Notes: a model not told the origin generated them from the letters alone. Counted from the stretch's first letter, positions 7,142 to 16,241 are shown. The stretch is DNA of 64,000 nt from Escherichia phage vB_EcoM_PHB13 (MK573636); one strand, 5' to 3'. Numbers and translations are program-made.

Positions 7142-7610
7142 AATTGATATCTATGCGGGTGGACCTTATCCATCGGGTGAATTGAGTAATTTCAATAAAA
7201 GACCATTCCGTCTATTTGGTTGCGATATTAACAGCACAGAAGGATTTTTACAGGGGCTAAGATTTAAGAACCCTCAGAGACAAAGAGAAATCTTTTTGAT
7301 GCATGGTGGCAAAGCAAAAAGAACCGGAAGAACTGAAAAGATTGAGAATCACATGTTATATTTTCAGGGTCGCCCGATTCATCGAATGAGTGAGCATTAT
7401 TACAAACTGGTACATCTGGCATTTGTTACGATGGCACGGAATAACCCAGAATTTTGTAAAGCATTACTCTCGACCGGAAATAAGAAATTACGTCATAGTA
7501 TAGGTGGAACTGATCCGTTAAAGACTATATTGACTGAATCGGAATTTTGTAGTATCCTCAATGATATTCGTGAACGTTTAACAAAACGAGGTGAAAATGT
7601 CAATTCTTAA
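7131..7610 (+). CDS. NADAR (YbiA-like) domain protein
   Basis: GELSNFNKRPFRLFGCDINSTEGFLQGLRF matches the NADAR signature (SNF ... PF ... S/T-E ... Q ... KF) as I recall it. Confidence 0.5.
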   Translation: MTSEIDIYAGGPYPSGELSNFNKRPFRLFGCDINSTEGFLQGLRFKNPQRQREIFLMHGGKAKRTGRTEKIENHMLYFQGRPIHRMSEHYYKLVHLAFVTMARNNPEFCKALLSTGNKKLRHSIGGTDPLKTILTESEFCSILNDIRERLTKRGENVNS

Positions 7611-9093
7611 TATCATTAATCAGCTTGCAGCAACAGACAAAACATCGCTGAAAGAAAAGATCCTGAAAGAATCTGCAAGCAATGAAACGCTGAAAGAATG
7701 CTTTTATCTGGCATATTGCAAACAGGTTACGTTTGGCGTAAAGAAATACGATAAACCATCGCGTTATTCGTCTGTATTGTCTTTATCCGGTGCATTACAG
7801 GTCTTTAAAAATAAACTTGCCACGCGTCAAGTAACTGGTAACGCAGCATTACAGCTAGTTACCGATACTCTGACTTGCTTGTCAGAAGATGATGCTAAAG
7901 TTGCAATGATGGTCCTGAATCGTGATCTGGAATGTGGTTGTTCCGCTACCACTGCAAACAAGGTATGGAAGAAACTGATCCCCCAGCAACCGTGTCACCT
8001 TGCATCGTCATGTTCTGATAAGACTATTGCTAATATCAAGTATCCGGCGTATGCACAACTTAAAAGCGATGGCGCTCGTGGTATGGCTGATATTGACGGG
8101 GAAACATTAGCAATCTATACCCGTTCAGGTAATACCTATCAGGGACTTGATGATTTGTTTGCGGTTTTAGAGCGTCTACGAGGCCGTGGAATTGTTCTAG
8201 ATGGCGAATTGGTATATATGCCTACCCTTTCGCAAACACCAGCGCAGAACTTCGTTGAGAGCATTTATGATGGTACTCTGTCATGGATATTTGAAGAAGA
8301 GGAAATGCCATTAACGCCAGTAGCGGAAGCAGTAAAAGAATCCGTTGTTGCAGATCGTCAGACCGGAAATGGTATCCTCAACAAATCACTGAAAGGAACT
8401 ATTCCAAAAGAAGAAGCCCAATGTATTGTTTACACTGTCTGGGATGTTATCGACCGTGATGTGTATTACGGAAACGAGAAAGCAACGAAGCAATATAAAG
8501 ATCGATTCGAAGAACTAAAACAGATTGTTGAAGAACTTAACGATCCTCGTGTTCAGATAATCGAAAACACTGTAGTTAACAATATAGATGAAGCTCGCGA
8601 AGTATATCATCGCTATGTAAACATGGGCTTAGAAGGTATTATCCTTAAAAATTTACATGGTGTATTTGAAGATCGTCGCAGTAAAGATCAGGTTAAATTT
8701 AAAGAAGTGATTGACTTCGACGCGGAAATTGTTGATGTATATCCGCATAGTAAAGACCCTAATAAGGTAGGCGGTTTTACTGTCCGTAGTGCGTGCGGAC
8801 GAATGATGACTAACACCGGATCGGGATTGACTGACACCACAACCGAAAAAGGTGATGATGGTATTGAACGTGTAATTCCGTTCGATCGTCGAAATGAACT
8901 CGACCGAGAAATGTTATGGGCTGACCGTCATAACCTGATTGGAAAAGTCATTGAGATGACATGCAACGGGTATATCCGCAGCAAATCACGTAAAGAAGAT
9001 GAACCGGAGTTCTCTTTATTTCTCCCGATCATCAAACGTATTCGCTACGACAAGACCACTGCAAATACAGTAAAAGAGGTATTCGATGTGTGA
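7597..9093 (+). CDS. 30: ATP-dependent DNA ligase
   Basis: Active-site motif KYPAYAQLKSDGARG (KxDG); about 498 aa; C-terminus FSLFLPIIKRIRYDKTTANTVKEVF resembles T4 ligase; ORF track start 7591 is GTG, ATG with GAGGTG site at 7597. Confidence 0.85.
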   Translation: MSILNIINQLAATDKTSLKEKILKESASNETLKECFYLAYCKQVTFGVKKYDKPSRYSSVLSLSGALQVFKNKLATRQVTGNAALQLVTDTLTCLSEDDAKVAMMVLNRDLECGCSATTANKVWKKLIPQQPCHLASSCSDKTIANIKYPAYAQLKSDGARGMADIDGETLAIYTRSGNTYQGLDDLFAVLERLRGRGIVLDGELVYMPTLSQTPAQNFVESIYDGTLSWIFEEEEMPLTPVAEAVKESVVADRQTGNGILNKSLKGTIPKEEAQCIVYTVWDVIDRDVYYGNEKATKQYKDRFEELKQIVEELNDPRVQIIENTVVNNIDEAREVYHRYVNMGLEGIILKNLHGVFEDRRSKDQVKFKEVIDFDAEIVDVYPHSKDPNKVGGFTVRSACGRMMTNTGSGLTDTTTEKGDDGIERVIPFDRRNELDREMLWADRHNLIGKVIEMTCNGYIRSKSRKEDEPEFSLFLPIIKRIRYDKTTANTVKEVFDV

Positions 9094-9559
9094 TAATGAA
9101 GGGGCGAAAGCCCCTAAACCTAAAAAATTGTCAAAGAAAGAGCAACGCCAGATCCTGAAAATGAAATATGGTGGACGTTGTGCCTATTGTGGCGAGGAAC
9201 TAGGGGATCGCTGGCACGCAGACCACATCAAACCAGTATTGCGACGCTCAAAGGTAGTCTATGATGAAAATGGACGAATTGCCCGTAATGATGATGGATC
9301 GTGGAAGTATAAGGTTGTAGGAATGCATAAACCGGAACATGATATACTTGATAACATGAATCCGGCGTGTGTGCAATGCAATCTTTATAAAAGCTGTATG
9401 GGCTTAGAATACTGGCGTAAGTTTATACGCGAGAACTTCCAGAAGTACATTCAGCGAAATATGGGGTTGCGAGCGGCTAAACGCTTTGGCTTGCTGTCAA
9501 TTCATGACCAGCCAGTAGAATTTTATTTCGAAAAGTACGAGCGCGAAAATAAGGAGTAA
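9086..9559 (+). CDS. HNH nuclease
   Basis: CAYCGEE...HADHIKPV...NMNPACVQCNLYK: CxxC, H-x-DH, N, CxxC-N-x-x-K HNH core. Confidence 0.65.
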   Translation: MCDNEGAKAPKPKKLSKKEQRQILKMKYGGRCAYCGEELGDRWHADHIKPVLRRSKVVYDENGRIARNDDGSWKYKVVGMHKPEHDILDNMNPACVQCNLYKSCMGLEYWRKFIRENFQKYIQRNMGLRAAKRFGLLSIHDQPVEFYFEKYERENKE

Positions 9560-9566
9560 CCATTAT

Positions 9567-9911
9567 ATGTTCTTTATGTTTATCTATATCCTTTTTGTTT
9601 TCCTGGTAGGCATGTACGCAAGCCGTTTAAACCGTAGCGTTATCGGTTATGTTCTCCTATCTTTGATCATTAGCCCGTTGATCACCTTTATCATTTTGTT
9701 GGTGTTGGGTCCAACTAAATCATATGAACAGGAACAAGCAGACAAGCTAAAAGCAGAGATGGTAGAGAAACAATTTGTTCAACTGTATCTAGAAAACCCA
9801 GAGTTTGAGGAAGTTTCCACCCTTAAGCGAATGTATGACGATCTAACACGATACCCTAACTATCGAAATGTGCTGGCTATGGAAGAAGCCATTAAGCTCA
9901 TGAAAAAATAA
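9567..9911 (+). CDS. hypothetical membrane protein
   Basis: AAGGAG site; two predicted transmembrane helices in first 50 residues. Confidence 0.5.
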   Translation: MFFMFIYILFVFLVGMYASRLNRSVIGYVLLSLIISPLITFIILLVLGPTKSYEQEQADKLKAEMVEKQFVQLYLENPEFEEVSTLKRMYDDLTRYPNYRNVLAMEEAIKLMKK

Positions 9912-9924
9912 TTCAAAAAAGTTG

Positions 9925-9953
9925 TTGACAGGGGATCACGTATCCCCTATACT
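9925..9953 (+). promoter_or_regulatory. sigma70-like early promoter cassette
   Basis: AAAAAGTTGTTGACA, spacer GGGGATCACGTATCCCC (inverted repeat), TATACT; ATG at 9997. Confidence 0.6.
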
Positions 9954-9996
9954 ACACACATCAAAACGAAACACACTTTCTTAAGGAGAATCAAAA

Positions 9997-10308
9997 ATGA
10001 AATACATCGTAACGCTGCCAATGATTGACTTCGACGGAACCATGAACACCCAGAAGACCATGAGCGCGGAGAACCAACTGAAAAACGCTACCCTGATTCG
10101 TGAAGTTCGCAAGGCACTGGCAAAAGAATTTAACACCAAAATTCATTCTGTAACTGGCGAACGTTTCGCGGATCATCTTGATATCAATATCAAACCAGTG
10201 CGCAACGGTGTTATCTCTGTAACAACCAACCGCCCACATGCTGACGCTGATAATCTGACCGCTCGCGCAGAAGATGTAATTATGACCGTTATCATGGAAA
10301 AACTTTAA
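9997..10308 (+). CDS. hypothetical early protein; paralog of 13313..13600
   Basis: 103 aa; shares REVRKALAKEFNTK / LVRDAVAKEFNFK block with 13313 ORF. Confidence 0.5.
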   Translation: MKYIVTLPMIDFDGTMNTQKTMSAENQLKNATLIREVRKALAKEFNTKIHSVTGERFADHLDINIKPVRNGVISVTTNRPHADADNLTARAEDVIMTVIMEKL

Positions 10309-10317
10309 AAAAAGTTG

Positions 10318-10347
10318 TTGACAGGGGAGGTTAAACTCCCCTATAAT
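10318..10347 (+). promoter_or_regulatory. sigma70-like early promoter cassette
   Basis: TTGACA, 18-bp spacer GGGGAGGTTAAACTCCCC, TATAAT. Confidence 0.6.
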
Positions 10348-10381
10348 ACACACATACCGAAACGAACTAGGAGAATCAATT

Positions 10382-10561
10382 ATGAACTTCAACGAAATCA
10401 TCGCTAAAATCCGCTACAACGAAGAAACCATTGAACTGATGCAAAACAATATCACCAATGGATATATGATTGCAGCGTCACAAGAAATCATTGATTTGAC
10501 GGTAGCAGAAAATGCTCAGTTGAAACATCAACTTTCAACGGCTGGCGTGATTGTTATGTAA
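10382..10561 (+). CDS. small hypothetical protein, 59 aa, not in ORF track
   Basis: ATG after cassette GGAGAATCAATT; translation MNFNEIIAKIRYNEETIELMQNN... Confidence 0.45.
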   Translation: MNFNEIIAKIRYNEETIELMQNNITNGYMIAASQEIIDLTVAENAQLKHQLSTAGVIVM

Positions 10562-10578
10562 TAAAGAGAGGTGACTAA

Positions 10579-10881
10579 ATGGCAAAAGTTCAGGTAGGTG
10601 AGGTCTTCAAAATGGAAGACCATACCGTGGAAGAGATGAAAGGCGCAGTATTGAAAGTAATTAATTCAATGTGGCGTAGTGTGCTTTACATCAACTTTAT
10701 CGACGGTGATGTGTGGTGGGCTAGCGATAGCGATAAATGGGATATCAAGTTCTACAAAGGTCATACTCACTGGTTAGGATCAGAGGATGTTGTAGAAGTT
10801 CTGGCGGTTGATGTTATGCCAGGAGAGATCGAGAATCTTAGCGGAACAGCAAAAGAAGCATTGACACGCCATTTTGCGTAA
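10579..10881 (+). CDS. HxHW-family small protein, copy 1 of 6
   Basis: 100 aa; GHTHW ... VLAVDVMPGE signature shared with five downstream paralogs. Confidence 0.55.
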   Translation: MAKVQVGEVFKMEDHTVEEMKGAVLKVINSMWRSVLYINFIDGDVWWASDSDKWDIKFYKGHTHWLGSEDVVEVLAVDVMPGEIENLSGTAKEALTRHFA

Positions 10882-10937
10882 TGTAGTATAACAATAATCG
10901 GGAGGGTAATACTCTCCCACAAATTGAGGATAATATT

Positions 10938-11129
10938 ATGTGTGGTCTTAAAATGGTTGCTGAATATAAGCGAACTGGTAATGTTATGATGTATCGACGC
11001 AATGCCAACGAAGAATGGAAACCTTCAAACCGCATTAAATCCATCCAGACGTTTATGAATAACATCAAAGAAAACCTTTTCGTTAAGCGTGCTGGTGCTG
11101 GACATTGGGAAGTTTACGAAGCTGTATAA
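10938..11129 (+). CDS. hypothetical protein
   Basis: 63 aa; preceded by degenerate cassette hairpin GGGAGGGTAATACTCTCCC and GAGGA site. Confidence 0.4.
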   Translation: MCGLKMVAEYKRTGNVMMYRRNANEEWKPSNRIKSIQTFMNNIKENLFVKRAGAGHWEVYEAV

Positions 11130-11145
11130 TTTTGAGGAAAATATT

Positions 11146-11454
11146 ATGGAACAAACTAAGCTATTTGTCGCGGAACCTTTTGTAAGAGACAATAAAAATC
11201 TGGCTAAAACAATCATTTTGTATTCGGATTGGATCTTTTATATCGATGGTAATTTAGACGTATATTGTCGCACAGCTCCAACTGATTCGTTTTATATCGA
11301 AGAAAACGACACTCATAATCATTGGTATGATGGAAACGACAAAACCGAACTAGCTGTTGTCCTAGCGTCAGACGTAGAACCTGAAAACGCGGACAAAGTA
11401 GCAGACAAATTTATGAAGTACGCATATAAAGATAAAAATGAAGATGAAGAATAA
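11146..11454 (+). CDS. HxHW-family small protein, copy 2 of 6
   Basis: THNHW ... LAVVLASDVEPENADKVADKF; ORF track start 11089 trimmed to ATG 11146. Confidence 0.5.
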   Translation: MEQTKLFVAEPFVRDNKNLAKTIILYSDWIFYIDGNLDVYCRTAPTDSFYIEENDTHNHWYDGNDKTELAVVLASDVEPENADKVADKFMKYAYKDKNEDEE

Positions 11455-11461
11455 AAAGTTG

Positions 11462-11490
11462 TTGACAGGGGATCACCGATCCCCTATAAT
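11462..11490 (+). promoter_or_regulatory. sigma70-like early promoter cassette
   Basis: TTGACA, spacer GGGGATCACCGATCCCC, TATAAT. Confidence 0.6.
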
Positions 11491-11524
11491 ACACACATAC
11501 CAACGAGATATAGGAGAATCAAAA

Positions 11525-11692
11525 ATGTTCCAGACTAAAGCAGAATGCGAAGCATACATTGTAGCAAACCACGGTGAAGACTACCTGAAATTCGATATCG
11601 TAGTAGCACAGAAGATCACCGGAATGGTTGCAAAATATCTGGGTGTTAAAGAAGGTTACTATCCTAGCAACGCACCAGAAATTAACAAATAA
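11525..11692 (+). CDS. small protein, 55 aa; near-identical paralog of 14783..14950
   Basis: MFQTKAECEAYIVANHGEDYLKFDIVVAQKITGMVAKYLGVKEGYYPSNAPEINK versus MFETKAACEAYIIETHGEDYLKFDIVVAQKIVGMVAKYLGVKEGYYPSNAPEINK; ORF track start 11438 lies inside the promoter. Confidence 0.55.
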   Translation: MFQTKAECEAYIVANHGEDYLKFDIVVAQKITGMVAKYLGVKEGYYPSNAPEINK

Positions 11693-11695
11693 TAG

Positions 11696-11724
11696 TTGAC
11701 AATGATTAAAGGGAGTAGTAAGAT
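11696..11724 (+). promoter_or_regulatory. sigma70-like early promoter cassette
   Basis: TTGACA, 17-bp spacer, TAAGAT; inverted repeat GGGAGTA/TACTCCC identical to the copy at 1121. Confidence 0.55.
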
Positions 11725-11756
11725 ACTCCCATCAAGACAACAAACGGAGAATCAAA

Positions 11757-11936
11757 ATGAAAGCTATCGAAGTTCAGAAGTACATGGAAATCATCGTTGA
11801 AAGTAAAGCACATTTAGTGTTGACTACTCACGTAGGATATGATAAAAATGTGCATATGCTGGTAGACAACATCGGCTGGATGAAGTTTAATCCTAACGAG
11901 AACGTACAAGCTCAAGAAATGACCATCCCTTTCTAA
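11757..11936 (+). CDS. small hypothetical protein, 59 aa, not in ORF track
   Basis: ATG after cassette GGAGAATCAAA; translation MKAIEVQKYMEIIVESKAHLVLTTHVGYDKNVHM... Confidence 0.45.
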   Translation: MKAIEVQKYMEIIVESKAHLVLTTHVGYDKNVHMLVDNIGWMKFNPNENVQAQEMTIPF

Positions 11937-11948
11937 GAGGAATATATT

Positions 11949-12227
11949 ATGATGCGAATTACTGCAACGCTGGATAAGACACACAAAGAAAGATTTTTCG
12001 GTATGATCTTAAAAACGCCGATTTTCGATAATTACCTTTATGTTGACTATAACGGTCACATTAGCTATAAATGTAAAAATGATATTCGTGATTCCTTTGG
12101 TGATAAATCACAAGCCGATATTCACGATCATTGGTGGAACCATGACGAACCTTTACGGGTTATCGCAGTTGATGTAAAAACAACAAAAGAAGCTGATAAG
12201 GTAGTGAATGATTATGAGCAAATTTAA
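11949..12227 (+). CDS. HxHW-family small protein, copy 3 of 6
   Basis: IHDHWWNHDEPLRVIAVDVKTTKEADKVV; AAGAGGA site. Confidence 0.55.
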   Translation: MMRITATLDKTHKERFFGMILKTPIFDNYLYVDYNGHISYKCKNDIRDSFGDKSQADIHDHWWNHDEPLRVIAVDVKTTKEADKVVNDYEQI

Positions 12228-12423
12228 AGATTATAAAGCATATCAACAGATCTTGCGAGTATACGAACCAGAGTTCGCCGAAAAGATGATGGAAGATGCA
12301 TCAAAATGCCCGTCCTTTTCTGGAAACAAAAACCATTATTCTACTGGTATTGTATCATGGAAAGAAACCGCATATACTCAACAATGGATAGATGTGTTTT
12401 CAAAAACTCTTGATTGGTGTTAA
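12208..12423 (+). CDS. small protein; tandem paralog A
   Basis: MSKFKDYKAY ... MMEDA ... W; paralogous to the next gene. Confidence 0.45.
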   Translation: MIMSKFKDYKAYQQILRVYEPEFAEKMMEDASKCPSFSGNKNHYSTGIVSWKETAYTQQWIDVFSKTLDWC

Positions 12424-12425
12424 TT

Positions 12426-12641
12426 ATGAGTAAATTTAAAGATTATCGAGCATATAAAGCGATCTGCGATATATTCGATGAAAAGACCGCTCATGCAATG
12501 ATGGAAGATGCAGAACAATATGAATCATTCGTCAATTCCAAAGATTGCACAGTAAACGAGGTTGTGTGCTGGAAAGATACAAAGTATGAAGAAAAATGGA
12601 TTACTGTGTATTACGGAGAACTAGAATATGAAATTAACTAA
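12426..12641 (+). CDS. small protein; tandem paralog B
   Basis: MSKFKDYRAY ... MMEDA ... W; ORF track start 12414 is TTG, ATG at 12426. Confidence 0.45.
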   Translation: MSKFKDYRAYKAICDIFDEKTAHAMMEDAEQYESFVNSKDCTVNEVVCWKDTKYEEKWITVYYGELEYEIN

Positions 12642-12948
12642 AAAGATTTTCCCAGAATTGCGTAACTGTCTGTTACTGGTTACTGAATATAAACCTTATA
12701 CGATCTACTTGTATGTTGATGAAAATCTGAAAATCCGTTACTATGATTATACGTCTCCAGTAATGAGATCATTTGCTCACGCGATAGCAAACAATTGTAT
12801 GAATCATAATCATTGGGTAAGTGATAATGATCATGATGCGTCAGAAGTTGTAGTGATCGCATGGAATCTATCACCAGCGGAAGCAGATCAAGCACGCATT
12901 AAGCATTATGCGAAAAACAATTGGTTTGACCTTATAAGTGAGGACTAA
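12628..12948 (+). CDS. HxHW-family small protein, copy 4 of 6
   Basis: MNHNHWVSDNDHDASEVVVIAWNLSPAEADQARIKHY. Confidence 0.5.
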   Translation: MKLTKKIFPELRNCLLLVTEYKPYTIYLYVDENLKIRYYDYTSPVMRSFAHAIANNCMNHNHWVSDNDHDASEVVVIAWNLSPAEADQARIKHYAKNNWFDLISED

Positions 12949-12952
12949 TATT

Positions 12953-13231
12953 ATGTTCAAAGTAGGTGATAAGTTTATTCTTAGTCGTGATATTCTCCCT
13001 AATCTGAAAGGTTGTATCATCAATCCTAGTAAAAATTCATGGTTTTATCTGTTTATCGACGACAAACTGAATGTACGCGCCGAATATAAAGAAGGTCTTC
13101 GTACTGGTCTAGGTTTCTTTCACGATCATGATCATAGCCATTGGCTAAACGGTGGATTCGAAGCAACGGTGCTAGCGGTTGATGTGACTTACACGAACAT
13201 CATAGAAAAATATCAAAAAATTATTTTATAA
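12953..13231 (+). CDS. HxHW-family small protein, copy 5 of 6
   Basis: FHDHDHSHWLNGGFEATVLAVDVTY; GAGGA site 9 nt upstream of ATG 12953. Confidence 0.5.
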   Translation: MFKVGDKFILSRDILPNLKGCIINPSKNSWFYLFIDDKLNVRAEYKEGLRTGLGFFHDHDHSHWLNGGFEATVLAVDVTYTNIIEKYQKIIL

Positions 13232-13237
13232 AAAGTG

Positions 13238-13266
13238 TTGACATAAGATCGGGTGTATAGCATAAT
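13238..13266 (+). promoter_or_regulatory. sigma70-like early promoter cassette
   Basis: TTGACA, 17-bp spacer, CATAAT inside perfect 8-bp inverted repeat GGGTGTAT/ATACACCC. Confidence 0.55.
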
Positions 13267-13312
13267 ACACCCATCGAAACGAGATACACTTTCTAACTAG
13301 GAGAATCAAATT

Positions 13313-13600
13313 ATGGCATACATCACTATCACTCTGAAAGTTAACAAATTTGCTCACGCTGCACACGAAACCGATAATGCAATCCGTAACAACAAGTTTG
13401 CACGTCTGGTACGCGATGCAGTAGCTAAAGAGTTCAACTTCAAATTTGCAGATGGTAAAGTTATCACTAAATGGACTCATGACGGCGAAACTAAAGTAGA
13501 ACTTGCTGACAACTTCGCAAATCAGGAATATGCACACCGCCGCATCAATGAAATCATCAGCGATGAACTCTACTACGGAGTACAGGAAGGTTTGTTTTAA
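13313..13600 (+). CDS. hypothetical early protein; paralog of 9997..10308
   Basis: 95 aa; shared AKEFN block. Confidence 0.5.
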   Translation: MAYITITLKVNKFAHAAHETDNAIRNNKFARLVRDAVAKEFNFKFADGKVITKWTHDGETKVELADNFANQEYAHRRINEIISDELYYGVQEGLF

Positions 13601-13604
13601 TATA

Positions 13605-13626
13605 GGGGGCGTTAAGCCCCTTTTAA
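13605..13626 (+). terminator. rho-independent terminator
   Basis: GGGGGCGTTAAGCCCC hairpin followed by TTTT. Confidence 0.55.
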
Positions 13627-13649
13627 TCTATCTGAATGAGGATATCACT

Positions 13650-13958
13650 ATGAAAAATCTTGTAGTTGAATTTACCCGCGAGAATTTACCACAATTTCGC
13701 AATTCTCTGCTTAAACTAGAGAACAGTAATTATGATGTATATTTTTACATCACCGAAGATCTAGAGATCCTTTACGCTGATTACCCAGGTCCGATCCGTA
13801 CCTTCGAAACCGCATCAAAATATAAAAATGTGCACGGTCATGAGCACTGGTTACGAGAAAACCCAGGTCGCAAGAAAGCACGCGTTAAAGTGTTGGCGAT
13901 TGACATAACACCAGCATACGCCGACCGGATTGCACAGAATGATTATTTGTCTAAATGA
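13650..13958 (+). CDS. HxHW-family small protein, copy 6 of 6
   Basis: VHGHEHWLRENPGRKKARVKVLAIDITPAYADRIAQNDY; ORF track start 13503 trimmed to ATG 13650 with GAGGA site. Confidence 0.5.
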   Translation: MKNLVVEFTRENLPQFRNSLLKLENSNYDVYFYITEDLEILYADYPGPIRTFETASKYKNVHGHEHWLRENPGRKKARVKVLAIDITPAYADRIAQNDYLSK

Positions 13959-13965
13959 TTTCATT

Positions 13966-13991
13966 AGCCGACCTTAGTGTCGGCTTTTTTA
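13966..13991 (+). terminator. rho-independent terminator
   Basis: GCCGAC-loop-GTCGGC hairpin followed by TTTTTT. Confidence 0.6.
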
Positions 13992-14016
13992 TTGCATAAA
14001 ATTTAAAAAAAAGGCA

Positions 14017-14045
14017 TTGACACCAGATCACGCCTATAGCATAAT
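14017..14045 (+). promoter_or_regulatory. sigma70-like early promoter cassette, one hairpin arm lost
   Basis: TTGACA, 17-bp spacer, CATAAT, ATACACCC arm only; conserved leader CATCGAAACGAGATACCACTTAGGAGAATCAAA. Confidence 0.5.
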
Positions 14046-14085
14046 ACACCCATCGAAACGAGATACCACTTAGGAGAATCAAACA

Positions 14086-14355
14086 ATGGCGCTGACTAAA
14101 ACCACTACCAACTTTGCAAAACGTCACGGCTTCGACCTTGAAATCAATAGCTTTAACGATTACACCCTTCTGTGTGTATATGAAATCGAAAATGATTGCG
14201 AGTGGATGTTCAGCTATCGCGTAAACGAAGACGGATCTTTCACTTGGAACGGAAATATCTATCTTGCACAGGAAGTAAAAGAAGAACTTCCGGCGACTAT
14301 CAAAGATGAGAAACATTTACGTCAAGTTTTAAAATTTATTTCTGAAAATATCTAA
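14086..14355 (+). CDS. hypothetical early protein
   Basis: 89-aa ORF after cassette. Confidence 0.5.
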   Translation: MALTKTTTNFAKRHGFDLEINSFNDYTLLCVYEIENDCEWMFSYRVNEDGSFTWNGNIYLAQEVKEELPATIKDEKHLRQVLKFISENI

Positions 14356-14362
14356 AAAGTTG

Positions 14363-14391
14363 TTGACACCAAAGTAAGAACATAGCATAAT
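14363..14391 (+). promoter_or_regulatory. sigma70-like early promoter cassette
   Basis: AAAAAGTTGTTGACA, 17-bp spacer, CATAAT. Confidence 0.5.
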
Positions 14392-14424
14392 ACACCCATA
14401 CCGAAACGAACTGGAGAATCAAAA

Positions 14425-14706
14425 ATGAAATTCATCAAAGCAACCGAAATCCTGAAAAACAAAGAAGCATACATCGGAAACATCGTTGGTATGAACATTC
14501 GCGGCGCTGGTAGCCAGTGGACCAAACTGGTTGATGTTAAAGCTAAAGGCGATAAAATTGAGTTCACTGTAAAAATGCTTACTCATAACGCACATATGGG
14601 TATCAAGACAAAAACGATGGCAGCAGATAAAAGCATCAACTATCAGGATCTGGGTGATTGGCTGAACTGGTGCAAAATGCACAACATCGAAACTAATCAC
14701 GAATAA
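14425..14706 (+). CDS. hypothetical early protein
   Basis: 93-aa ORF after cassette. Confidence 0.5.
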   Translation: MKFIKATEILKNKEAYIGNIVGMNIRGAGSQWTKLVDVKAKGDKIEFTVKMLTHNAHMGIKTKTMAADKSINYQDLGDWLNWCKMHNIETNHE

Positions 14707-14720
14707 TTTTAAAAAAGTTG

Positions 14721-14749
14721 TTGACGGGGATCGGGAGATCCCCTATAAT
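14721..14749 (+). promoter_or_regulatory. sigma70-like early promoter cassette
   Basis: TTGACG, spacer GGGGATCGGGAGATCCCC, TATAAT. Confidence 0.55.
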
Positions 14750-14782
14750 ACACACATACCGAAACGAAATAGGAGAATCAAA

Positions 14783-14950
14783 ATGTTCGAGACTAAAGCA
14801 GCATGTGAAGCATATATCATTGAAACCCACGGCGAAGATTATCTGAAATTTGACATTGTAGTAGCACAGAAGATTGTAGGGATGGTTGCGAAATACCTCG
14901 GAGTTAAAGAAGGTTACTATCCAAGCAACGCACCGGAAATTAACAAATAA
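14783..14950 (+). CDS. small protein, 55 aa; near-identical paralog of 11525..11692; not in ORF track
   Basis: See 11525 feature; ATG after AGGAGAATCAAA. Confidence 0.5.
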   Translation: MFETKAACEAYIIETHGEDYLKFDIVVAQKIVGMVAKYLGVKEGYYPSNAPEINK

Positions 14951-14965
14951 TTTTTATAAAAAGTG

Positions 14966-14994
14966 TTGACAGGGGAGACACCCTCCCCTATAAT
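14966..14994 (+). promoter_or_regulatory. sigma70-like early promoter cassette
   Basis: TTGACA, spacer GGGGAGACACCCTCCCC, TATAAT. Confidence 0.6.
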
Positions 14995-15034
14995 ACAACC
15001 ATCAAGACGAGATACCACTTAGGAGAATCAAACA

Positions 15035-15286
15035 ATGGCTAACATCGAAACCGCAAAGAAAATCGCTAAAGACCTGAACGTTAAAGGCTTCCGTAAACTG
15101 AAATTACAGCGTGTACGCTACACCATCGGCAAACAGTGCTCTTTCATGAGCGAAGAAGTTGCTAACAGCCTCATTGATAACCTGATTGCGGCTGGCTGGG
15201 AAGTTGCGGATCTGAAAACTTGCCGCGAACTGGCTAACAAAGGTCTTTTAGATTCTGTTACTATAAAACCAATGGGGGCAGCGTGA
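15035..15286 (+). CDS. hypothetical protein, first gene of a five-gene operon
   Basis: 83 aa; first 16 nt (ATGGCTAACATCGAAA) identical to the start of the 17164 gene. Confidence 0.5.
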   Translation: MANIETAKKIAKDLNVKGFRKLKLQRVRYTIGKQCSFMSEEVANSLIDNLIAAGWEVADLKTCRELANKGLLDSVTIKPMGAA

Positions 15287-15528
15287 AAAGAAAATTAATT
15301 AAACGAAATAAGGAATTTTTGAATAACTGCATTAAGGTTGCTAATGGTTGGCCTTTGTTCCTCTTCCTTTATGATTGGTATTCTAAACAATCGGTAGAGG
15401 AAACACGACACTATAAGAAGATCAGAAAAGAATCATATACAAAACAAGGCCGCATTAACGGACTTTACTTAATGTGGCACGGCAAAGAACCTTCTAAAAT
15501 CTGTGTTGGATTAAAGGGGCGTATATGA
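15283..15528 (+). CDS. basic hypothetical protein
   Basis: 81 aa; apparent GTG start overlapping upstream stop; no internal ATG until residue 64, so start is uncertain. Confidence 0.35.
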   Translation: MKRKLIKRNKEFLNNCIKVANGWPLFLFLYDWYSKQSVEETRHYKKIRKESYTKQGRINGLYLMWHGKEPSKICVGLKGRI

Positions 15529-16241
15529 AACAAAAATTAATATTCTGCAACTTTGACGGATCGGGGATAATGGGGCTAGAATGGGCTAAAGCAGGTCATA
15601 AGGTGATCTGCTTTAATGCAGATGATGCCGACCACGGCACATACAAAAAGTATAATACCCGATTTGAACATCCAAACATTACATATGTAAACACATGGAT
15701 TGATTTGGATTGGCTGGAAAGAGCAATGGACCTTGAATGGGGAAAACCAGATATTATCTTTGCATTCCCACCGTGCACCAATTTAGCTGTTAGTGGCGCT
15801 GCACACTTTGAACGAAAGAAACGAGAACAAGGACCATTAATTCAAGTTCATGATGTAAGGGCAGCTAAAATAACCGCTTATTTGGGCGAATGGTTAGAAG
15901 TTCCCTACATGATAGAGAATCCTGTAAGCGTTATCTCTAGCATGTGGCGTAAGCCTGATTACATGTTCCACCCGTGGGAATATGGCGGTTATTTGCCGGA
16001 ATATGATATACATCCTACGTTTCCTGAGTATATTGCCTCCCGTGATATGTACCCGAAAAAGACTTGCTTATGGACGGGACAAGGTTTTATAATGCCAGAA
16101 AAGAAACCTATACCGATTAATAAAGGGTACAGTAAACAGCATTCTAAGCTAGGCGGGAAAGGAACCAGAACAAAGACTATCAGGTCACTTACCCCGCGAG
16201 GATTCGCAAAGGCAGTATTTGAAGCCAATAAGGATCTATGA
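15525..16241 (+). CDS. cytosine-C5 methyltransferase-like protein (mini Dcm fold)
   Basis: Motif I-like LIFCNFDGSG, motif IV-like FAFPPCTNLAVSGAA (Pro-Cys), motif VI-like MIENPVS, C-terminal RSLTPRGFAKAV; only 238 aa with no room for a target-recognition domain. Confidence 0.45.
   Translation: MKQKLIFCNFDGSGIMGLEWAKAGHKVICFNADDADHGTYKKYNTRFEHPNITYVNTWIDLDWLERAMDLEWGKPDIIFAFPPCTNLAVSGAAHFERKKREQGPLIQVHDVRAAKITAYLGEWLEVPYMIENPVSVISSMWRKPDYMFHPWEYGGYLPEYDIHPTFPEYIASRDMYPKKTCLWTGQGFIMPEKKPIPINKGYSKQHSKLGGKGTRTKTIRSLTPRGFAKAVFEANKDL

Follow-up and report, generated by a model that had tools for sequence, protein, structure and literature searches.

The internal-protein (IP) locus of phage T4 holds several divergent, small and variable anti-restriction proteins side by side in a plastic stretch of the genome. 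In phages RB49 and phi1, modules of small ORFans lie among strong early promoter/stem-loop cassettes (PeSLs) and are inserted, deleted or replaced between close relatives (PMC2839356; PMC4122927). These PeSLs are active early promoters and terminators that mediate ORFan shuffling in a non-essential block (RB49 ORFs 192-210), of which ORFs 192 and 210 have been studied (PMC2839356). T4-like phages also encode accessory proteins of ~90-100 amino acids (aa) that have no recognisable domain, such as Acb2, TadIV-1 and Tad2 (DUF2829); TadIV-1, an immune-signal sponge of the Straboviridae, is T4 Vs.3 (PMC13243611). Here, we describe a tandem family of six small genes, c1 to c6, in a 64,000-nucleotide (nt) stretch of Escherichia phage vB_EcoM_PHB13 (MK573636). 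We call this whole stretch the window, and coordinates refer to it unless another sequence is named. The six proteins share a His-x-His-Trp (HxHW) motif.

The window is sequence of a Krischvirus (RB49-like) coliphage, and the array lies in the same type of genome and in the same block (RB49 ORFs 192-211) as the RB49 and phi1 modules. Like these, it consists of small ORFans among strong early promoter/stem-loop cassettes, with insertion, deletion and replacement between close relatives. Unlike the single PeSL-bounded cassettes of RB49 and phi1, however, most HxHW genes appear to be internal to multi-gene units, and their orthologs are stable across the genus. The array resembles the T4 IP locus in that multiple divergent small proteins are adjacent in a plastic locus of a T4-like phage. 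It differs in that its promoters are early, not late, and there is no sequence similarity; direct reading of the six N-termini revealed neither the N-terminal capsid-targeting sequence nor the (L/I)-x-E protease site of T4 IPI-III. The family is also like the sponge proteins in size, accessory nature and lack of a recognisable domain, and its conserved aromatic-plus-His patch would suit a ligand pocket. A term search of PMC2839356 gave no mention of paralogs or gene families, and literature searches on the RB49 locus tags, and on Krischvirus or RB49 with anti-defence terms, returned nothing on the six genes. The paralog family is previously unremarked in the searchable literature and its motif is new, at a locus of a known kind.

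Six paralogs with a common motif

All six genes lie on the plus strand. The first, c1 (10579..10881; 100 aa), has the motif GHTHW followed by the strand VLAVDV; c2 (11146..11454; 102 aa from the ATG at 11146) has THNHW, VLASDV and an acidic tail; and c3 (11949..12227; 92 aa) has IHDHWW and VIAVDV. The start of c4 (12628..12948; 106 aa; NHNHW, VIAWNL) overlaps the upstream open reading frame (ORF) by 14 nt. It is followed by c5 (12953..13231; 92 aa from the ATG at 12953; HDHDHSHW, VLAVDV) and c6 (13650..13958; 102 aa from the ATG at 13650; HGHEHW, VLAIDI). These ORFs begin where a preliminary description of the window had placed them, and the motif strings that it listed are correct. Each copy has a ribosome-binding site of GAGG/GGAG type 6-10 nt 5' of its ATG, and all six are annotated as coding sequences in related genomes. 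Their RB49 orthologs are, in order, RB49p208, p206, p203, p200, p199 and p197, each annotated as 'hypothetical protein'.

We confirmed that the six ORFs are true paralogs, with homology well beyond chance. Their motifs are in register in a MAFFT alignment, as the preliminary description had held, and the six agree without exception in both His and the Trp of the motif and in the V and A of the next strand. HxHW falls within aa 57-67. The (V/I)(L/I)A-x-(D/N)-(V/I/L) strand follows, its first residue 8-13 positions beyond the Trp. All copies are connected by pairwise BLASTP and phmmer (22-32% identity), c4 and c6 being the closest pair (32%, E 1e-15). When each copy was left out in turn, a profile hidden Markov model of the other five recovered it at E 1e-6 to 2e-14 when run against the 565 six-frame ORFs in the window, and nothing outside the family scored E < 10. 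The window contains exactly six members, even with all search filters off.

The motif is encoded by CAT ACT CAC TGG in c1 (10762..10773), CAT AAT CAT TGG in both c2 (11314..11325) and c4 (12805..12816), CAC GAT CAT TGG in c3 (12123..12134), CAT AGC CAT TGG in c5 (13133..13144) and CAT GAG CAC TGG in c6 (13839..13850), all on the plus strand. Both CAT and CAC are used for His, and the x residue is not the same in all copies, which shows that the protein is what is conserved. The same variation rules out HxHW as an embedded DNA element, which we had considered given that CATAAT resembles a -10 box. We also considered conserved pairs of a small partner gene and an HxHW gene. The partners are mutually unrelated and the pairing is not strict, and we treat the arrangement as inherited gene order.

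We also aligned the six copies with divergent orthologs and metagenomic relatives, 25-26 diverse members in all. Here, full invariance is limited to the second His and the Trp, while the first His and the Tyr of an upstream 'lYiD' strand are at least 90% conserved. The motif consensus is H-[N16 D6 T2 S1 E1]-H-W-[L/Y/W/V/I]. The Asp position of 'AVDV' can be D, N or G, and that of 'YiD' can also be T, N or H; thus, no acidic residue is an obligatory partner of the two His. These two are the only His conserved family-wide, the extra ones of c5 (HDHDHSHW) and c6 (HGHEHW) being copy-specific. The metal site that the preliminary description suggested from clustered histidines would rest on two conserved His rather than many. 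The proteins have zero to two Cys each and isoelectric points from 4.4 (c2) to 7.9 (c6), and no signal peptide or membrane segment was seen when the six sequences were read by eye. The family comprises small, soluble, cysteine-poor proteins.

AlphaFold2 models were obtained for c6 (mean predicted local distance difference test score, pLDDT, 80; predicted template modelling score, pTM, 0.76) and c3 (pLDDT 89.7, pTM 0.83, with the motif region above 90). The prediction for each copy is a single compact alpha+beta domain with an N-terminal beta-meander. It runs from a short N-terminal strand and helix through a meander of three strands and a variable loop to HxHW, a strand and a C-terminal helix. 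In the models, H-[N/D]-H-W would open a short helix, the '(V/I)LA-x-D-V' strand would be buried and hydrophobic, and the C-terminal helix would be amphipathic. Paralogs find one another structurally in the BFVD database (Foldseek; template modelling score, TM, 0.58-0.73).

The preliminary description had recognised no named T4 protein in the family, and our searches agree: none was matched, nor did we find a characterised housekeeping domain in Pfam, NCBIfam, PADLOC or PDB sequences. Pfam-A, NCBIfam and PADLOC gave no consistent match for the six copies (only noise from NCBIfam, nothing from PADLOC), and when 26 members were scanned at E <= 10, no curated family was matched by more than one of them. 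Matches to PROCT, T4_Y03C and ISL3 transposase involved one member each, below cut-off, and were rejected. A profile search of PDB sequences gave nothing below E 0.7. In PHROGs, the copies match five families of unknown function over their full length at E 1e-48 to 1e-65: c1 phrog_16486, c2 phrog_15965, c3 phrog_15972, c5 phrog_17255, and both c4 and c6 phrog_9345. Because c2, c3 and c5 cross-match phrog_9345 at E 2e-6 to 2e-3, these five PHROGs form one superfamily.

The family is likewise without a structural neighbour in PDB. In BFVD, Foldseek matches at E < 0.01 are krischvirus proteins only, namely family members and one divergent 88-aa protein of phage JSE. The absence of a known fold refers to PDB and BFVD. 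Several GNATs are recurrent matches, with a generic beta-meander-plus-helix similarity. Tis1 (PA14_01140; PDB 6ox6_B), the immunity protein of the type VI effector Tas1, matches structurally below the usual significance at 6-13% identity, and the genomic context is unrelated. There was no significant structural match to the Tad2/AcrIIA7 fold, and no match to DUF2829 (Tad2/AcrIIA7) among 26 members even at E <= 10. An hhalign comparison of the family alignment gave probabilities of 0.16% with T4 Vs.3 and 0.11% with T4 Vs.4, which we take to be Acb2.

The HxH element is common to the HxHW family and to the sites of metallo-beta-lactamases (HxHxDH), HIT proteins (HxHxHxx) and cupins (HxH...E). 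Moreover, the 'lYiD' strand, which precedes the motif, ends in Asp like beta-lactamase-fold motif I, and c5 and c6 read HxHxH. We found, however, neither HxHxDH with downstream His/Asp/His ligands in an alpha-beta/beta-alpha domain of at least ~200 aa, as in metallo-beta-lactamases, nor H-phi-H-phi-H-phi-phi on a beta-strand within a HIT fold.

An old, genus-restricted array under purifying selection

The family is restricted to Krischvirus and close uncultured relatives. An exhaustive HMMER profile search of 1.84 billion cluster representatives returned 21 proteins at E <= 1e-3, of which 19 are family members, all of them small phage ORFs (68-203 aa). The other two, P0097 (six repeats; MAM-like by reading of the sequence) and P0100 (four weak stretches), were judged to be summed weak repeat matches, not homologs. 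Word-indexed searches of 5.8 billion proteins yielded orthologs of c1-c4 and c6 only, carried by short fragments or by contigs that reach 164-176 kb; a second such search with broader alignment found no further lineage. Two divergent members, compared by tblastn with 50,697 phage genomes, matched 55-56 records, exclusively from Escherichia, Shigella and 'Enterobacteria' phages, and all those with taxonomy read were Krischvirus. The 100-150 kb interval of T4, which includes the syntenic gene 30-alt region, gave no family-profile match with all filters off.

More distant relatives occur on short metagenomic contigs only, where the neighbouring genes are 40-67% identical to those of the window and the order with upstream ORFs is retained. 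The array is therefore older than the genus as sampled. One 2.1-kb contig (L005; Logan SRR8048117_15661) carries five family domains, including a natural 203-aa tandem fusion of two HxHW domains (P0086; 823-1434 of the contig), which, coming from a single contig, may be an assembly or frameshift artefact.

Among nine genomes compared for orthologs, c1, c2, c3, c6 and a c4-type copy are present in all nine. Missing from JSE and from a 170-kb metagenomic relative (L002) is c5; in both, c4, c5 and a small ORF just upstream (the second of two that start MSKFKDY) are replaced by two other family members, of P0087 and P0069 types. Most neighbouring proteins are better conserved between genomes than those of the family. 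Minimum ortholog identities are 71% for c2 and 88-89% for c1 and c6, compared with 96-100% for the neighbouring ORFs at 9997, 10382, 13313, 14086 and 14425. The most variable copy is c2, with ~71%-identical alleles in genomes that are otherwise ~95% identical. Orthologs of c1 occur in 100-, 106- and 110-aa forms, the length depending on an in-frame insertion (..DEEGSLV.. or ..GVKWDEEGNMV..) within the variable loop that immediately precedes GHTHW.

The preliminary description had interpreted the array as an expansion under diversifying selection, which our comparison does not support. Ratios of non-synonymous to synonymous substitution rates (dN/dS; pooled Nei-Gojobori) are 0.15, 0.23, 0.30, 0.27, 0.08 and 0.23 for c1 to c6. 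In sliding windows of 15 codons, the minimum (0.02-0.17) falls on the motif in every copy, and values near or above 1 are confined to isolated windows with very few substitutions. H..HW is invariant in up to 42 distinct orthologs, and the variation is concentrated in the termini and in the loops that flank the motif. Nor is the expansion recent: identity between copies is only 22-32%, and a conserved ortholog of each copy exists throughout the genus and in distant metagenomic relatives. The copies arose by ancient tandem duplication, and each has been kept by purifying selection. Together, the ribosome-binding sites, the low dN/dS with its strongest constraint at the motif, and the annotation as coding sequences in relatives argue that these are real genes.

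Individual copies are nevertheless disrupted in some genomes. Frameshifted or truncated genes are c6 in kvi (P0060) and JSE (P0081) and c2 in JSE (L014 7731-8025); in the JSE copies, the C-terminal part is readable in another frame. These frameshifts reflect either recent pseudogenisation or homopolymer sequencing errors. We conclude that the six copies are old, functional and individually dispensable genes, among which allele and cassette exchange occurs with no demonstrated positive selection.

An extra 88-aa gene, absent from the window, lies upstream of c1 in JSE, G2248 and L002 (minus strand of the JSE sequence L014, 8612-8878; L013, 2082-2348; L002, 7581-7847). Its product aligns weakly with the family profile over its full length (E 0.04-0.14 in small databases), with GNGHL in place of HxHW. 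The JSE protein C4MZ33, which we take to be the product of this gene, matches the family in Foldseek at E 5e-3 and TM 0.59-0.67. The 88-aa gene appears to be the family's seventh member, highly diverged.

Early promoters and neighbouring genes

The 10000-14500 interval matches 58 phage records at 90-96% nucleotide identity. Those with taxonomy read are all Krischvirus (RB49, ECD7, JSE, MIZ4/6, kaaroe and G2248), with genomes of ~163-170 kb. Upstream of the array are gene 30 (DNA ligase, 7591-9093) and an HNH endonuclease ORF (9086-9559); downstream are a DNA methyltransferase gene (15525-16241) and, in related genomes, alt. The corresponding T4 interval, between gene 30 and alt, holds alt.1 alone, which makes the ~6-kb block a lineage-specific hyperplastic region. 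The array thus belongs with the PeSL-associated ORFans of T4-type hyperplastic regions: it lies between gene 30/HNH and methyltransferase/alt, is accompanied by nine PeSL-like cassettes, and has copies that are lost, replaced or allelic between genomes.

Nine near-consensus sigma-70 promoters of PeSL type punctuate the 9.9-15.0 kb block and the late-promoter box TATAAATA does not occur in 9500-16000, in keeping with the early, promoter-cassette-rich region of the preliminary description. Each cassette consists of AAAAGTTGTTGACA, usually a short GC-rich spacer hairpin, TATAAT or CATAAT, and a conserved leader ending TAGGAGAATCAAA before the next ATG; the spacer hairpin was seen in several of the seven promoters whose sequence was examined. 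From gene spacing and overlaps, we infer that three cassettes serve the family. The one at ~10310-10381 (promoter 10318..10347, plus strand, matching the consensus at 12/12 positions) would drive ORF 10382-10561, c1, ORF 10938-11129 and c2. The cassette at 11688-11745 (11696..11724, plus strand, 10/12) would drive ORF 11757-11936, c3, the two MSKFKDY ORFs, c4 and c5. The third, at 13230-13287 (13238..13266, plus strand, 11/12), would drive ORF 13313-13600 and then, past a hairpin, c6. The family genes would thus be internal members of three putative early units (10318 to c1 and c2; 11696 to c3, c4 and c5; 13238 to c6). The remaining cassettes lie at 9917-9974 (promoter at 9925), 11454-11511 (11462), 14009-14066 (14017), 14355-14412 (14363), ~14713-14783 (14721) and 14958-15015 (14966).

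An intrinsic-terminator-like hairpin with a T-run follows just after c6 (13966..13985, plus strand), and phage G2248 has a terminator annotated at the equivalent site. The hairpin between ORF 13313-13600 and c6 (13604-13621; AGGGGGCGTTAAGCCCCT then TTT) is GC-rich and lies inside the third putative unit, where it may act as an attenuator or RNA-stability element.

Other genes of the block are also duplicated or polymorphic. The two MSKFKDY ORFs (12214-12423 and 12426-12641; phrog_8471) form a second tandem paralog pair, 41% identical. In kaaroe, MIZ6, RB49 and G2248, the second of them is an allele with 62% identity; JSE and L002 have a single MSKFKDY gene, and a homolog precedes a c4-like gene on a distant contig (L007). 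A third paralog pair comprises ORFs 9997-10308 and 13313-13600, each the first gene after a PeSL and each a full-length match to phrog_7474 (E ~1e-43), with no significant pairwise BLAST match between them. A 172-nt direct repeat (11522-11692 and 14783-14950; 85% nt and 89% aa identity) duplicates a 55-aa ORF (..HGEDYLKFDIVVAQK..). Both copies sit directly 3' of a PeSL, and this looks like cassette duplication. A 114-aa ORF (9567-9911; phrog_25625) with a strongly hydrophobic N-terminal half probably encodes a membrane protein. It is an insertion/deletion polymorphism, present in the window, G2248, JSE and the NC_005066 sequence of RB49, and absent from ECD7, MIZ4, ELT4, kaaroe, MIZ6 and the OZ035808 'RB49' assembly.

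Candidate functions

The reading that best fits these data, to which we give a probability of roughly 40%, is that the copies are accessory, host-directed binding proteins. Early expression, a non-essential plastic locus, restriction to one genus, copies that are singly lost or replaced, and an invariant patch beside variable loops all fit such a role best. Located in the non-essential hyperplastic block, the genes would be switched on right after infection by strong early promoters of sigma-70/PeSL type. Each paralog would work singly, as an accessory factor that the phage can do without, and bind a host target (a protein or small ligand). The His-x-His-Trp patch may be the common contact or ligand site, with flanking loops and termini of varying length setting the specificity of each copy. 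The likely role would be host takeover or counter-defence rather than housekeeping, and no housekeeping domain was detected in the curated-family and PDB profile searches. The genomic context makes the anti-defence role named in the preliminary description plausible. Loss or exchange of single copies points to independent action rather than an obligate complex.

Several observations weigh against this proposal. Selection is purifying across each gene without clear positively selected patches, unlike the classic signature of an arms race. The early timing is read from promoter sequence, and some of the frameshifts that we cite for dispensability, especially those in JSE, may be sequencing errors. 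What the family does is something that we infer; its existence, boundaries, phylogenetic restriction, constraint and predicted fold are solid.

The most interesting alternative is that the proteins work as ligand- or metal-binding oligomers, in which paired subunits form a composite HxHW site (four His and two Trp) for a metal ion or a nucleotide-type small molecule. They would then soak up immune second messengers as 'sponges' or act as a minimal hydrolase, and each paralog would be matched to a ligand of its own. The invariant His, His and Trp could stack on a base and contact a phosphate or metal, the size of ~90-100 aa and the early expression resemble the Straboviridae sponges Acb2 and TadIV-1 (PMC13243611), the fusion P0086 hints at paired domains, and there are sub-threshold structural hints. 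However, the Tad2 match did not recur with the better c3 model, Vs.3 and Vs.4 resemble the family neither in sequence nor in profile, and the fusion comes from a single 2.1-kb Logan contig. Each chain also offers only two conserved His, and the candidate acidic ligands vary (D/N/G or D/T/N/H); on balance, we consider such oligomers doubtful. A bolder form of the idea, which we regard as unlikely, is that the HxHW domain is an unseen fold that dimerises into a His4/Trp2 pocket, and that the six to seven paralogs are a ligand- or target-specific counter-defence battery of signal sponges or effector inhibitors.

Three further explanations are less likely than host-directed binding. The copies might serve the phage itself, as a hetero-oligomer or as modulators or chaperones of its early machinery for transcription or DNA metabolism. 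Retention of six orthologs under purifying selection in most krischviruses, and a gene order kept even in relatives that are 30-50% identical, would suit this role. Yet no other T4-like genus has the family, although the core machinery is common to them; copies are lost, frameshifted or swapped singly; and the location is a hyperplastic ORFan region (PMC2839356), which together make a phage-internal role improbable. It is more improbable still that the copies are immunity- or antitoxin-like inhibitors, each plugging the active site of a host abortive-infection toxin or of a nearby phage ADP-ribosyltransferase or nuclease. The locus does adjoin alt and, in relatives, also a second ADP-ribosyltransferase gene, but no cognate toxin gene accompanies each copy, and the small upstream ORFs are mutually unrelated and without a toxin domain. 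Lastly, PeSL-mediated ORFan shuffling is known in this region (PMC2839356) and we observed cassette replacement, so that the ORFs could be functionless or selfish filler carried along by recombination cassettes. The dN/dS of 0.08-0.30, a motif invariant down to ~20% identity, intact ribosome-binding sites and confident, mutually consistent structure predictions already disfavour this last explanation, and we consider it very unlikely.

The HxHW family is a reasonable candidate for a host-interaction role. Krischviruses are used in phage-therapy cocktails, and the array yields a small, defined target set of six genes and three point mutants for anti-defence and host-takeover screens in these phages. 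A counter-defence battery or a new ligand-binding fold, if true, would be of broad interest; otherwise, this is one more genus-restricted ORFan family. If the six genes are indeed a counter-defence battery, they would constitute the first case of anti-defence paralogs arrayed in tandem in a T4-like phage.

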